Shown here in pieces: positions 2,749 through 32,549 of a stretch of 64,000 nt of DNA. The first letter of the stretch is position 1, and each line of letters begins with the position of its first letter. Under the pieces are notes generated by a model. The model did not search any database and was not told where the DNA came from. It saw nothing but the letters and a program-made list of their open reading frames with translations. Both the position numbers and the translations under genes were made by a program. Source of the stretch: an uncultured Oscillospiraceae bacterium. GTDB taxonomy: Bacteria; Bacillota; Clostridia; Oscillospirales; Acutalibacteraceae. Location: contig CABULH010000001.1 in the NCBI GenBank assembly GCA_902492455.1, positions 143,862 to 207,861 of the forward strand, read 5' to 3'.

Positions 2749-3292
2749 CATGACGATACAACCGGAAAAGATAGGAGCCTACATTGCAGCCTTGCGTAAA
2801 GCAAAGCAGATGACACAGACTGAACTGGGACAGCGGCTGCAGATTTCCAGTCAGGCGGTTTCCAAGTGGGAGCGGGGCGAATGCCTGCCCGACACAGGGG
2901 TGCTGCTGGATCTGGCAGAAATATTGGGGACCACGACGGATAGCCTGCTGCGGGGAGGAGGAGTGATGCGGACCTACAGCGGGAAGATTCGGGTAGCAGA
3001 TATCTTGGAAGGGATGACCGGTTTCTTTAGCTTTCCCCGCTTGGTGGGAAAGGAAAACACCCTGTATCAGGGAATGATCGAAGGGATCAATCGCCGGATG
3101 AATATGGATTGGGAAGAGGACTTAAAGGGAAGAGACCAGCGATGGTGCATCGAACTTTTTGCCGCTGAGGTGATCATTCAGGAACTCAAGCAGGGGAAAT
3201 TTTTAGATAAAGCGGAGGTCAACCGCCTGTTTACTCTGGATAAGTGGCGGGAGTCCGTGCTGCGTTATGCCGATGCGTATGGCATATCCTGA
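2749..3292 (+). CDS. XRE-family HTH transcriptional regulator with uncharacterised C-terminal domain
   Basis: N-terminal HTH_XRE (IGAYIAALRKAKQMTQTELGQRLQISSQAVSKWERGE). Start chosen at MTIQPEK, after the GGAAAT region. Confidence 0.55.
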
Positions 3293-4443: not shown

Positions 4444-4530
4444 TGGTGCCGCTGGCGGGACTTGAACCCGCACACCGTTTCCGGCCAGGGATTTTAAGTC
4501 CCTTGTGTCTGCCGATTCCACCACAGCGGC
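4444..4530 (-). tRNA. tRNA-Leu (anticodon UAA), type II, CCA encoded
   Basis: Manual cloverleaf on the reverse complement: acceptor GCCGCUG/CAGCGGC, D-arm GUG..CAC, anticodon stem AGGGA/UCCCU with loop CUUAAAA, long variable arm, T-arm GCGGG-UUCAAGU-CCCGC, discriminator A plus CCA; 87 nt. Confidence 0.85.
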
Positions 4531-30045: not shown

Positions 30046-30943
30046 CGAGATTTACAGCGCCTATTATCAAGCGGCGGCAGGCTTGATCAACGCGGCGATC
30101 AGCGGGGAACTGACGGCAAAAAACGCGGAAGAGCTGATCGCTTCCAGGGCCTTTCGGGAGAGCTTCGTCTATATTCTCGACGCTATCCGCCGGGAGGATT
30201 GGAAAATTATCACCCGGGATTTCCGCACGTCCCTCCGGTACCCTCCACAGACGCCCCTTTCCACACTGGAGCTGCGGTTTCTCAAGGCGATAACCCTGGA
30301 CGACCGGTTTCGCTTGCTATATGACGGGGAGCCACAGGGGCTGGACGGAGTGGAGCCGCTTTTTACACCGGCGAATTTTCATTTCTTCGACCTCATCAGC
30401 GACGGGGACCCCTATACGGATGCTGCCTATAGGAATCATTTCCGCACGGTGTGGAAGGCGCTGAAGGAAGAGCGCCGCCTGCGGATATCCTTCCGGGACG
30501 GTAAGTGCCGGGATCACACCGGTATTTACACGCCGCGCAAGCTGGAATATTCGGAAAAGGATGACAAATTCCGCCTTTTATGCCAAGGGAGATATCGGCT
30601 GGACATCATCAATCTGGCCCGTATCCGTGGCTGCGAAATGTTGGAAGCATTTGACGAAGAAGTGCTGCCGCCGCTGCGCCGCCGGACGGAGCGGGTGCTG
30701 ATTCGGATACGAGATCAGCGCAACGCATTGGAGCGGTGTATGCTGGGCTTTGCCGACTACGCTAAGGAAACCCGGCAGACGGGGAAGGACGAATATGAGA
30801 TGGAACTCACCTATTATAAAAGCGATGAGACGGAGGTGCTGATTCGGGTGCTGTCTTTTGGCCCTTTGGTGCGAGTGTTGGCACCGGATGGATTCATTGA
30901 GCTGATTCGGGAACGGCTGGACAAACAGCGTCAATTGTGGTGA
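30034..30943 (+). CDS. WYL-domain protein, subunit 2 (translationally coupled)
   Basis: WYL signature KFRLLCQGRYRLDIINLARI and a C-terminal WCX-like region; start MLFSEIY overlaps the upstream stop by 11 nt. Confidence 0.6.
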
Positions 30944-30944
30944 T

Positions 30945-31004
30945 GCGAAGAGAGGAAGGGGGAACCGCCGGCGGTTCCCCCTTCCTCTCTTCGCAGCTTT
31001 TTTT
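30945..31004 (+). terminator. very strong intrinsic terminator: 50-nt perfect palindrome (25-bp stem) plus T9
   Basis: gcgaagagaggaagggggaaccgcc|ggcggttcccccttcctctcttcgc followed by agcttttttttt, directly after the WYL2 stop. Confidence 0.7.
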
Positions 31005-31058
31005 CCATGATAAAGGGAAGATTTTCCTGTATAGTAAAGCCTGCAAAGCCGCTTTGCA

Positions 31059-31149
31059 GGGAACTGCCGGTTCCGGCGGTGCACGGGGCGCTGCCGAAGT
31101 GCATGCCGGCGGCTATGCGAAAATTGGGGTTCGAGTCCCCAGCAGTCCT
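31059..31149 (+). ncRNA. tRNA-like element (canonical T-arm + acceptor-like helix) inside a ~400-nt structured non-coding leader; class unknown (possibly Y-RNA-like tRNA mimic)
   Basis: T-arm UGGGG-UUCGAGU-CCCCA at 31125-31141, then GCAGUCC, which can pair with GGAACUGC at 31059-31066 (one bulged A). No canonical anticodon arm or D-arm. Region 31005-31409 has no credible ORF. Confidence 0.3.
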
Positions 31150-31451
31150 TTCGAGACTGCCCAGGGTTTGGTTTGCGGGTGAAATTCCCGCCCTCTTAAG
31201 GGTGTTCCGCACCCATTTGTAAAAGATGGGGAGGCACGCCGCTGAGCCTGCCGACAGGCAAGCATAATGACTGCCCTGCCGGAAAGCGGATACCGGCGGC
31301 CGGTTTCCCCTGCCAAAGCATAAGCTTCCGCAGGGGAGAACCGCCGTCTGAAGCCTTCCGCCGCAATCAGCATGCGGCTTGACGGCGTGCAGCTTCCATC
31401 GAATGAGACATGATCATCCCGCAGCGATTAGCGGGGAAAGGAATGATGGAT

Positions 31452-32549
31452 ATGAAAATCATCGTAAAAGAAAACGAACGGGGTTTGCTGTTTAAGGATG
31501 GGAACTTCATTAGAATGCTGGCGCCGGGCAGGTACCGCTTTTTCCGCTCGGGCATGCGGGTGGATAAACAGGCCATCGACGGCGCATTTGATGCCAGAGG
31601 GTATGATTTATCCATATTTGCCAGGGACACGGAGCTGAAAAAGCAGCTGGCGGTGGCAGATGTTCCCGATGAGATGGCGGCGCTGCACTACATAAACGGT
31701 AAATATGCCGGCTGCCTGGTCAGCGGCCGCTACGCTTTCTGGAACATCTATGATAAGCATGAGTTCCGGCTGACGGATATGCGGGAGCCGGAGGTGGGCG
31801 AGGATATTCCCCGCTATATCTGTGACCGGATTCCCCTGGAATTGATCCGCAAGGTGGAGGTGGCTCCCTATCAGAAGGCGCTGCTGTTTGTCAATCAGAA
31901 GCTGATCAAGCTGCTGGATGAGGGCACCTACTATTTTTGGAACAACGGCGCGCGGATCGACGTAAAGCTGGCGGATACCCGGCTGCTGCAGATGGAAATC
32001 ACCGGGCAGGAGATGCTGACCCAGGATAAGGTAACTTTGCGGGTCAACTTCATCTGCCGGTACCGGATTGCCGATACCATACGGATTTTTACGGAAATCG
32101 ATGACTACGAGGAACAGATGCACGTTACGCTGCAGCTGGCCTTGCGGGAGGTCATCGGGCAATACCGGCTGGATGAGATTCTGGAAAACAAGGAGCGGAT
32201 CGCCGCATTTGCCCTGCAGCGTCTGAAAGAGCGGGAAGGGGAATTCTTTGTCGCCGTGGCCGATGCGGGCATCAAGGACATCATTCTGCCGGGGGAGATC
32301 CGCGCCATCATGAACACGGTGCTGGTGGCGGAGAAAACAGCCCAGGCAAATGTCATCACCCGGCGTGAGGAAGTGGCTTCCACCCGCAGCCTGCTGAACA
32401 CCGCCCGGCTGATGGAGGAAAACCAGACGCTGTATAAGCTCAAGGAGCTGGAATATCTGCAGAAAATCTGCGAGAATGTGGGTAGCATCTCGGTGACAGG
32501 CGGCGGGGATCTGCTGGCGCAGTTGACAAAGATACTGAAGGGAGCGTAA
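31452..32549 (+). CDS. SPFH/band-7 (stomatin/flotillin-like) domain protein, no TM segment, with degenerate N-terminal repeats
   Basis: SPFH core (..TQDKVTLRVNFICRYRIAD.., C-terminal coiled coil), N-terminal ERGLLF-like repeats. Start chosen at ATG 31452, 9 nt after GGGGAAAGGA; alternatives at 31410 and 31443. Confidence 0.65.
   Translation: MKIIVKENERGLLFKDGNFIRMLAPGRYRFFRSGMRVDKQAIDGAFDARGYDLSIFARDTELKKQLAVADVPDEMAALHYINGKYAGCLVSGRYAFWNIYDKHEFRLTDMREPEVGEDIPRYICDRIPLELIRKVEVAPYQKALLFVNQKLIKLLDEGTYYFWNNGARIDVKLADTRLLQMEITGQEMLTQDKVTLRVNFICRYRIADTIRIFTEIDDYEEQMHVTLQLALREVIGQYRLDEILENKERIAAFALQRLKEREGEFFVAVADAGIKDIILPGEIRAIMNTVLVAEKTAQANVITRREEVASTRSLLNTARLMEENQTLYKLKELEYLQKICENVGSISVTGGGDLLAQLTKILKGA

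Follow-up and report, generated by a model that had tools for sequence, protein, structure and literature searches.

The 64,000-nucleotide stretch of DNA analysed here (hereafter, the window) originates from an uncultured Oscillospiraceae bacterium (contig CABULH010000001.1 of the assembly GCA_902492455.1) and includes an untranslated stretch, running from a presumed transcription start at ~31042 to 31451, in front of the genes for an SPFH/Band-7 protein and an RtcB RNA ligase. As read from comparative sequence analysis, this stretch carries a two-domain structured RNA of about 370-410 nt (~31042-31451, + strand), and the element is a member of a large RNA family of the kind represented by YrlA and b7a-tRNA, that is, the tRNA-mimicking RNAs of RtcB repair operons. 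An initial annotation, made from the letters of the window, had proposed a structured non-coding leader at 31005-31409, beside rtcB. Its structured and non-coding character and its neighbourhood were confirmed, the SPFH-RtcB operon lying directly downstream, but the flagged stretch proved to be the 5' part of a larger element, whose second covarying domain (31234-31390) had been overlooked. The word “leader” is apt, since a terminator and a promoter-like site are found just upstream and the terminator scan called no terminator between the promoter and the SPFH gene. The 421-nt region as a whole folds better than its shuffled versions (z = -4.0). Coordinates of all the features are collected in Table 1.

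To collect relatives of the locus, the SPFH protein was searched against species-representative genomes; 181 were found and 80 loci, at 51-70% identity, were kept. They belong mostly to Clostridia, plus Erysipelotrichia and single metagenome-assembled genomes of Fusobacteriaceae and Coriobacteriales, and some carriers are available in culture, among them Oscillibacter valericigenes (strain Sjm18-20, AP012044.1, at about 469.6-478.8 kb), Dielma fastidiosa (strain JC13), Robinsoniella peoriensis and Bacilliculturomica massiliensis. In the window the gene order, all on the + strand, is WYL-A and WYL-B (two WYL-domain regulator genes), terminator, promoter, RNA, SPFH/Band-7 and RtcB, and the cassette of WYL-A, WYL-B, a gap of 450-550 nt, SPFH and RtcB was recovered by tblastn in most of the 80 loci. 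The DNA of the gap is itself kept, as an iterated nhmmer profile seeded from the window matched nearly every locus with 100-230 bits over ~400 positions. The association with the operon was also tested independently of the protein, by searching metagenome contigs with a 32-nt degenerate pattern derived from a single hairpin of the RNA, Pb. The pattern found 121 loci, in 90 of which the rest of the RNA was present, the other 31 being close to the number of matches expected by chance. An SPFH gene was located within 900 nt downstream and on the same strand in 61 of the 65 RNA-positive metagenome loci having at least 600 nt of downstream sequence; two of the four loci without such a call are coordinate overlaps, so that the count lies between 61 and 63. 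WYL-B was found upstream in 49 of the 65 RNA-positive metagenome loci with room upstream. In locus L034 an additional open reading frame (ORF) of 205 aa with its own ribosome-binding site (RBS) is situated between the RNA and SPFH (L034:3381-3998), and a gap of ~650 nt is seen in L087 and L092 as well; with an extra gene between them in some loci, the RNA is therefore not bound to the SPFH start codon.

The most conserved landmark of the RNA is the T-arm, which had been recognized from the window as a textbook T-stem and T-loop and which indeed has a 5-bp stem, a UUCRANY loop and the G53-C61 closing pair. Its core, GGTTCRANTCC, occurs at two sites in the 64 kb, this arm and a tRNA-Leu, at a chance expectation of 0.3. 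A T-arm fitting the search pattern is present in 62 of 62 full-length relatives, with the loop UUCGAAU in 48 of 68 distinct sequences; its stem is 100% paired and includes three covarying pairs, and an alignment anchored on the hairpins Pc and Pe showed the T-arm of the window to be orthologous to that of the family. In tRNA, the 3' strand of the T-stem continues into the acceptor stem and the GG of the D-loop docks on the T-loop. In the element, the T-stem is followed by three hairpins, Pc, Pe and Pd, all joined by linkers of 0-2 nt. Pc and Pd are the two downstream hairpins pointed out by the initial annotation (31142-31160 and 31175-31191); its statement that the D arm is lacking has to be qualified, because the D-loop-like hairpin Pe follows Pc, while no anticodon arm was found in the copy of the window, as stated. 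Pc shows compensatory changes in all six modelled pairs, its end-closing stem has a mean length of 5.9 bp as compared with 2.3 in shuffles, and its 5' strand exists in 42 distinct versions. In Pe the third stem pair covaries (AU 56, GC 9, UG 2, GU 1), and the loops carry GG, a dinucleotide that was required by the detection pattern; by analogy, from this GG-containing loop, Pe may be regarded as a counterpart of the D-arm. The hairpin in the position of Pd has a minimum free energy (MFE) of -7.0 kcal/mol in the relatives versus -2.6 kcal/mol in shuffles, and its pairs covary. On a structure-blind alignment of 44 sequences, the 18 pairs of T-arm, Pc, Pe and Pd were 85.6% paired versus 31-48% in slid controls, the value rising to 90.6% on a model-based alignment. 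A covariance model of this module gave one match per locus, always on the strand of SPFH, in 68 of the 80 genome loci.

The 3' domain is built as a long irregular stem (P1-P5), closed by a putative helix P0 with a side hairpin. On a structure-blind MAFFT alignment of 58 sequences, RNAalifold returned 33 pairs, 27 of them with compensatory changes. As many as 88.7% of the alignment cells were paired, versus 34-45% when the partners were slid by 1-3 columns, there were 524 double-change cells versus 92-152 in the slid controls, and the covariation score was 0.675 versus at most 0.173; none of 500 shuffles reached these values. The excess of G-U (140) over A-C (65) fits transcription of the + strand. 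Near-invariant blocks of the domain remain unpaired, namely GCCYUGYC, GGAUACC, CUNAAG, AGCCGC and the apical GCC-AGAAG...CUUUCC-GC. The size of the RNA, its two-domain build and its invariant internal loops are of a kind typical of protein-bound or tertiary-structured RNAs. The linker that joins the two domains (31191-31230) is kept among the relatives neither in sequence nor in length.

At the 5' end, helix Pa closes a three-way junction around the hairpins Px and Pb. In 56 sequences the Pa duplex had a mean energy of -12.4 kcal/mol, versus -9.0 ± 0.32 kcal/mol upon permutation, and 0 of 200 permutations were as good. Conservation and covariation in orthologous loci, by which the initial annotation had proposed to check itself, are both present, in the 5' as well as in the 3' domain. 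A strong 5' hairpin at 31040-31060, favoured by the MFE fold, was rejected, as it shows no covariation in the family; it is a perfect 9-bp hairpin, CCUGCAAAG-CCG-CUUUGCAGG, which in this genome alone rivals Pa. The relatives carry an insert of 7 to ~95 nt between Pa and the T-arm, the window having a minimal linker of 6 nt. The variable insert often contains a second T-arm-like hairpin (in ~22 of 62 sequences) or an anticodon-arm-like hairpin with the loop CUGUCAA.

The similarity to tRNA raises the matter of an acceptor stem. The acceptor-like helix proposed previously, between GGAACUGC (31060-31067) and GCAGUCC (31142-31148), can be drawn in the window but is not a feature of the family: GGAAC is a strand of Px, GCAGUC is the 5' strand of the covarying Pc, and the relatives have no equivalent pairing. 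Neither in the copy of the window nor in the family was a 7-bp acceptor stem found between the 5' end and the strand following the T-arm. Another acceptor-like pairing, that of the 3' strand of Pb (GYGUAUG) with the seven nucleotides after the T-arm, is complete (7/7 bp) in 19 of 58 relatives and reaches 6/7 bp in 6 more, falling to at most 5/7 in the remaining ones and to 3/7 in the window. It displayed no covariation in a permutation test on the 58 relatives and competes with Pb and Pc, both of which covary. The relatives able to form the pairing at 6/7 or 7/7 bp include L051 and every listed relative with an anticodon-like arm of the CUGUCAA type. Judging from these sequences, the cloverleaf-like alternative is a trait of a subfamily and not part of the family core.

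As was supposed initially, the element is not a tRNA gene: within the window ARAGORN called only a tRNA-Leu at 4444-4530 and no tmRNA, and the tRNA model of Rfam gave no match in the flagged region either at the gathering score or at E ≤ 10. Among 68 loci and the window there was one ARAGORN call inside the element, a tRNA-Asp in L051. In L045 the program reported a “tRNA-???” with an abnormal anticodon loop (anticodon taaa) 3' of RtcB (L045:6663-6736, + strand), in addition to the leader RNA; this gene may represent another RNA partner of the system, one that resembles tRNA more closely. At the gathering score, no Rfam family covered the element in the window and 16 loci. The search with Rfam models suggested by the initial annotation was carried out on 30850-31550 and revealed no match to tRNA, tmRNA, Y_RNA/YrlA, T-box or RNase P at E ≤ 10; what appeared in the window at this threshold was a miRNA-like noise, caused by the terminator stem present there, and a few short chance matches. 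Eight further loci, searched permissively, yielded only an 18-nt match of the T-arm to the tmRNA model, and no T-box or riboswitch model of Rfam was matched in the window and the loci searched. The element is absent from Rfam 15.

Among characterized RNAs, one that is close in organization is YrlA, whose T and D stem-loops are conserved; the stem-loop that lies between them, in the acceptor position, is not, and an optional V stem-loop can precede the T one on the 5' side (Chen et al., 2014, PMC4201824). The RNA of the window has the same permuted order of T, acceptor-position and D-like elements, T-arm, Pc and Pe being contiguous and each of them covarying, and it likewise shares an operon with rtcB, predicted to be co-transcribed with the protein genes. 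As the T-stem continues into Pc, which is followed by the hairpin with the GG loop, the analogy with Y RNAs drawn in the initial annotation is structurally apt. In contrast to YrlA, the presumed partner of the RNA is an SPFH/Band-7 protein, with no Ro60/Rsr gene in the cassette, and the RNA extends beyond the tRNA-like module into a junction on the 5' side and a large domain on the 3' side, being ~400 nt long versus ~100-130 nt. The 2016 abstract of Burroughs and Aravind reportedly mentions SPFH/Band-7 modules together with “a novel tRNA-like molecule”. A preprint that cites b7a-tRNA describes it as a tRNA-like RNA predicted beside Band-7 and RtcB genes, “strongly resembling an authentic tRNA”, with no experimental validation as of 2018 (bioRxiv 10.1101/312249). 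According to this citing description, both RNAs adjoin a Band-7/SPFH gene and RtcB, are non-coding and tRNA-like and have been proposed to be cofactors of RNA ligation; against the same description alone, the copy of the window differs in having no acceptor stem, anticodon arm or tRNA call, and its T-arm belongs to a two-domain RNA of ~400 nt. The likeness to an “authentic tRNA”, in the sense of that description, is greater in the ~40% of relatives that have an acceptor-like stem, sometimes together with an anticodon-like arm, and 1 of 60 was called as a tRNA. Literature searches found no other paper on b7a-tRNA, and a term search of the main text of Weinberg et al. (2017) found no mention of it. 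An architecture that joins a 5' junction to a permuted tRNA module of the YrlA type and to a large 3' domain has, as far as we checked, not been described, b7a-tRNA being known to us by the citing description only.

As to function, we consider the RNA, by analogy, most likely to be a cofactor or scaffold of an SPFH-RtcB ribonucleoprotein, an assignment to which we would give about an even chance. The RNA would be transcribed from the conserved sigma-70-type promoter as the first element of the SPFH-RtcB operon and would be released from the operon transcript, or persist as its 5' part, as a presumably stable species. It could then act with SPFH and RtcB as YrlA does with Ro in the rsr-yrlA-rtcBA operons, the mimic of the tRNA elbow engaging tRNA-recognising partners or positioning substrates of tRNA type, and the 3' domain binding the SPFH oligomer. 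The WYL pair, for which TTTTCCGTGATAAA is a putative target motif, probably switches the promoter on upon the appearance of nucleic-acid damage products, by analogy with RtcR, the regulator of the rtcBA and rsr-yrlBA-rtcBA operons (Hughes et al., 2020, PMC7790460). Common to both would be an RtcB operon that is placed under a dedicated ligand-sensing transcription factor and encodes a tRNA-like RNA of its own; the difference is that a WYL pair and a sigma-70-type promoter stand here in place of a CARF-containing sigma-54 activator, and that the cassette includes neither RtcA nor Ro.

Several considerations weigh against the cofactor role. Free RNA may never exist, because no terminator and no processing site that could be recognised were seen between the element and the SPFH gene, and a cis-acting element would account just as well for its unvarying place as a 5' leader. 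In approximately 40% of the relatives the acceptor-like pairing that rivals Pb and Pc can form, and this might be taken for a switch. Both the likening of Pe to a D-arm and any contact between the T-loop and the loop of Pe are inferences, and the copy in the window is a low-scoring, divergent member of the family (37.3 bits versus 45-79 for most relatives).

A cis-acting leader is the foremost competitor, and we hold it to be possible but less likely than not: the folded 5' untranslated region would sense a signal, be it a tRNA that is damaged or uncharged, a fragment of RNA, a protein or a metabolite, and would control elongation, stability or translation of the SPFH-RtcB mRNA, without any function of a free RNA. 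It would explain why the element always lies directly 5' of the first gene of the operon, on the same strand and with no intervening terminator, and why small hairpins overlap or abut the RBS in the window and in many relatives, where a short ACCU...AGGAGGU hairpin is frequent at this site. The alternative pairing of the Pb 3' strand, which 25 of 58 relatives can form with 6 or 7 of its 7 bp, would moreover create two mutually exclusive folds. However, this pairing is missing in over half of the family, the window included, and does not covary, nor does the alternative 5' hairpin of the window, and a conserved helix linked to the core that would act as terminator/antiterminator or sequester the RBS was not seen. 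Some loci have additional genes, or another copy of the promoter, 3' of the RNA, the RNA is far larger and more modular than typical riboswitches, and every member examined retains an intact T-arm of tRNA consensus.

As another reading, the tRNA-like module would serve as a decoy or sentinel, baiting tRNA-targeting ribonucleases (anticodon nucleases, ribotoxins) and either inhibiting them competitively or being cleaved into a fragment that the WYL regulators would sense and RtcB would reseal. The conserved tRNA-type T-arm and elbow-like module, the additional anticodon-arm-like (CUGUCAA) or second T-arm-like hairpins in the variable insert of many relatives, the competitive-inhibitor role suggested for YrlA's tRNA-like domain (PMC7790460) and the occurrence of WYL domains as ligand sensors of defence systems (PMC4012209) are all consistent with such a function. 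We nevertheless find it unlikely, since the copy of the window and other minimal members possess no anticodon-like arm, Pd, which occupies the anticodon-stem position, usually ends in a stable tetraloop, and the large conserved 3' domain is left without explanation.

A bona fide Ro-binding Y RNA of the YrlA family, the identity floated by the initial annotation, is highly improbable in spite of the YrlA-like order of T, acceptor-like and D elements and the same neighbourhood logic beside rtcB. In its strict sense this membership does not hold: no Ro/TROVE gene is found among the four genes of the cassette (WYL, WYL, SPFH, RtcB), the Y_RNA/YrlA models match neither the window at E ≤ 10 nor the 16 related loci at the gathering score, the element is ~3 times as long as YrlA, and no more than 4 of 59 relatives have the Ro-binding motif of YrlA, GNCGAAN0-1G. 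The sequence GCCGAAG at 31092-31098, inside the Pb loop of the window, fits this motif, probably fortuitously. Least probable of all, to the point of being negligible, is that we deal with a degenerate tRNA gene, a tRNA 3' half left at an integration site (the alternative origin offered initially) or a small coding region: a T-arm without a complete cloverleaf in the window and random ORFs of a GC-rich stretch might suggest so, but the T-arm is kept in every full-length relative and its module at one position 5' of SPFH in 68 of 80 loci, within a larger covarying RNA; no frame stays open across the relatives, which agrees with the earlier remark on the lack of a credible ORF (around the T-arm, any given frame is open in a third of them at most), and the plasmid and phage collections contained no blastn relatives of the RNA. 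A pattern search of viral contigs gave one unrelated match.

To return to the proposed SPFH-RtcB ribonucleoprotein, the SPFH protein is predicted to be soluble, with no transmembrane-like segment (the maximal 19-residue hydropathy is 1.28). Its AlphaFold (AF2) model (predicted local distance difference test score 84.8) comprises three N-terminal five-stranded beta units, the SPFH domain and a helix of 60 residues, and matches the folds of stomatin, HflK/C and prohibitin, the longest alignment being that with the major vault protein. The model has the build of cage-forming relatives, an SPFH domain plus a long helix, with beta repeats in front. In a protein database search, which listed close homologues only, two homologues, P0002 and P0003, are 637-638 aa long, nearly twice the usual 365, and others have ~500 aa, which suggests duplicated or fused SPFH architectures. 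On the basis of the model, one may imagine the operon as encoding a bacterial vault-like repair particle, in which a “mini-MVP” (major vault protein) cage or ring of SPFH would be combined with the ~400-nt RNA and RtcB and induced through WYL upon RNA damage; the 3' domain would dock on SPFH, the permuted elbow mimic would present or capture broken substrates of tRNA type, and RtcB would reseal them. We regard this extended proposal as doubtful. It shares with the vault (major vault protein, vault RNA and the TROVE protein TEP1) the pairing of a small structured RNA with a presumably soluble protein in which beta repeats are combined with an SPFH “shoulder” and a long helix. It differs in that the SPFH protein of the window has only three beta repeats, that a cage formed by it is hypothetical, that the RNAs have no sequence relation, and that the similarity scores of SPFH to the vault protein are lower than those to stomatin, prohibitin and HflK/C. 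If true, the particle would be a previously uncharacterised large ribonucleoprotein, a prokaryotic counterpart of the vault and of the Ro-Y RNA logic.

To our knowledge, RtcB operons are widespread, little has been established about their bacterial substrates and accessory factors, and among RNA partners the Ro-bound Y RNA alone has been studied. The family analysed here would constitute a second, independent case of an RtcB operon with its own tRNA-mimicking RNA, where SPFH replaces Ro and WYL sensors replace RtcR. An RNA of ~400 nt with very strong covariation and no Rfam family, carried by numerous gut-dwelling and anaerobic Bacillota, some of them in culture, brings within reach questions on tRNA-like modules in RNA repair, on the function of soluble SPFH proteins and on bacterial vault-like ribonucleoproteins.

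Table 1. Features of the WYL-RNA-SPFH-RtcB locus, in positions of the window
Feature	Position	Strand	Basis or remarks
WYL-domain regulator gene A (WYL-A), 413 aa	28804-30045	+	PADLOC WYL E = 2e-14; weak Pfam WYL/WCX
WYL-domain regulator gene B (WYL-B), ~302 aa	30035-30943	+	PADLOC WYL E = 1.7e-9; Pfam WCX E = 4.7e-4
Intrinsic terminator of the WYL genes, 20-bp stem (30946-30993) and T-run	30946-31003	+	Terminator scan
Promoter/operator TTTTTTTCCATGATAAA (family form TTTTTTTCCGTGATAAA)	30997-31035	+	Promoter scan and conservation
5' three-way junction, Pa (31043-31052 with 31109-31118) around Px and Pb	31043-31118	+	Covariation
Hairpin Px	31060-31074	+	Structure-blind alignment, compensatory changes
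Hairpin Pb	31078-31107	+	Structure-blind alignment; one pair AU 25, GC 20, CG 3
T-arm UGGGG-UUCGAGU-CCCCA	31125-31141	+	Sequence and family conservation
Pc hairpin GCAGTC-CTTTCGA-GACTGC, abutting the T-stem in the closed-acceptor position (equivalent of YrlA “AS”)	31142-31160	+	Covariation
Pe, D-loop-like hairpin CCA-GGGUU-UGG (family CCA-GUGGUU-UGG)	31161-31171	+	Covariation
Pd hairpin GCGGG-UGAAAUU-CCCGC (GCGGGTGAAATTCCCGC)	31175-31191	+	Covariation
Variable linker with local hairpins 31191-31202 and 31212-31230	31191-31230	+	MFE fold
3' domain, long irregular stem P0-P5	31234-31390	+	Covariation
P0	31234-31248 with 31376-31390	+	Drawn by eye
Side hairpin of the 3' domain	31249-31260	+	
P1	31262-31270 with 31366-31375	+	
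P2	31280-31287 with 31353-31360	+	
Conserved GGAUACC	31288-31294	+	
P3	31295-31300 with 31343-31348	+	
P4	31307-31313 with 31330-31336	+	
Apical P5	31315-31327	+	
Hairpin CCCGC-AGCGAUUA-GCGGG, abutting the RBS GAAAGGA	31418-31442	+	Read from the sequence
SPFH/Band-7 gene, 365 aa, predicted soluble	31452-32549	+	Pfam Band_7 E = 8e-26
RtcB RNA ligase gene, 401 aa	32615-33820	+	Pfam RtcB E = 2.7e-62

WYL-A is kept upstream of the RNA in most related loci. The start of WYL-B was placed at ATG 30035, which is in frame and has an RBS; relatives of the protein begin to align at approximately residue 62-65 of the long ORF. The ORFs of WYL-A and WYL-B overlap by 11 nt, the start of the latter overlapping the stop codon of the former, and a comparison of the two sequences detected no mutual similarity. 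The promoter is predicted to be of the sigma-70 type; the promoter scan resolved it into a -35-like hexamer ATGATA (31007-31012), a 17-nt spacer and the -10 sequence TATAGT (31030-31035), and transcription would start, according to this promoter-like match, at about 31042. Across 62 sequences, the conservation of the motif TTTTTTTCCGTGATAAA amounts to 90% or more. ATG 31452 was accepted as the start of SPFH, as a database protein of 99% identity has 365 aa and relatives align only from this position. The RtcB product matches the RtcB families of NCBIfam below their equivalog cut-offs.

In L068, and likewise in L074, SPFH and RtcB are separated by an insertion of ~700 nt (L068:5100-5800), where in L068 a terminator is found together with another copy of the promoter/operator (CTTTTTTTCCGTGAAAAAT...TAAAAT) and an ORF of ~200 aa; since this copy drives the inserted gene, the motif appears to act as a regulated promoter that is portable. 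Between the same two genes, L061, L071, L076 and L079 have a gap of similar kind. In L051, the Gut-1 RNA (RF01706) is matched twice on the - strand, opposite to that of the RNA, at 1534-1617 and 3095-3175 (50.6 and 44.7 bits), one of the matches being between the WYL genes and the other just 3' of the RNA. In L101 (1-1313, - strand) the gene order differs: an RtcB-like gene of 27% identity is followed, at the end of the contig, by a partial RNA with Pb and two T-arm-like hairpins, and the two WYL genes point away in divergent orientation. L142 (480-720) and L159 (60-320), both on the - strand, revealed a shortened form of the RNA, in which Px, Pb, the T-arm and Pc are followed by a further tRNA-like 3' part that has a T-arm of its own. 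This form is preceded by a TATAAT promoter and resides on contigs without SPFH, RtcB and WYL genes, next to an ORF with a weak match to REP_ORF2-G2P, a replication-protein model.

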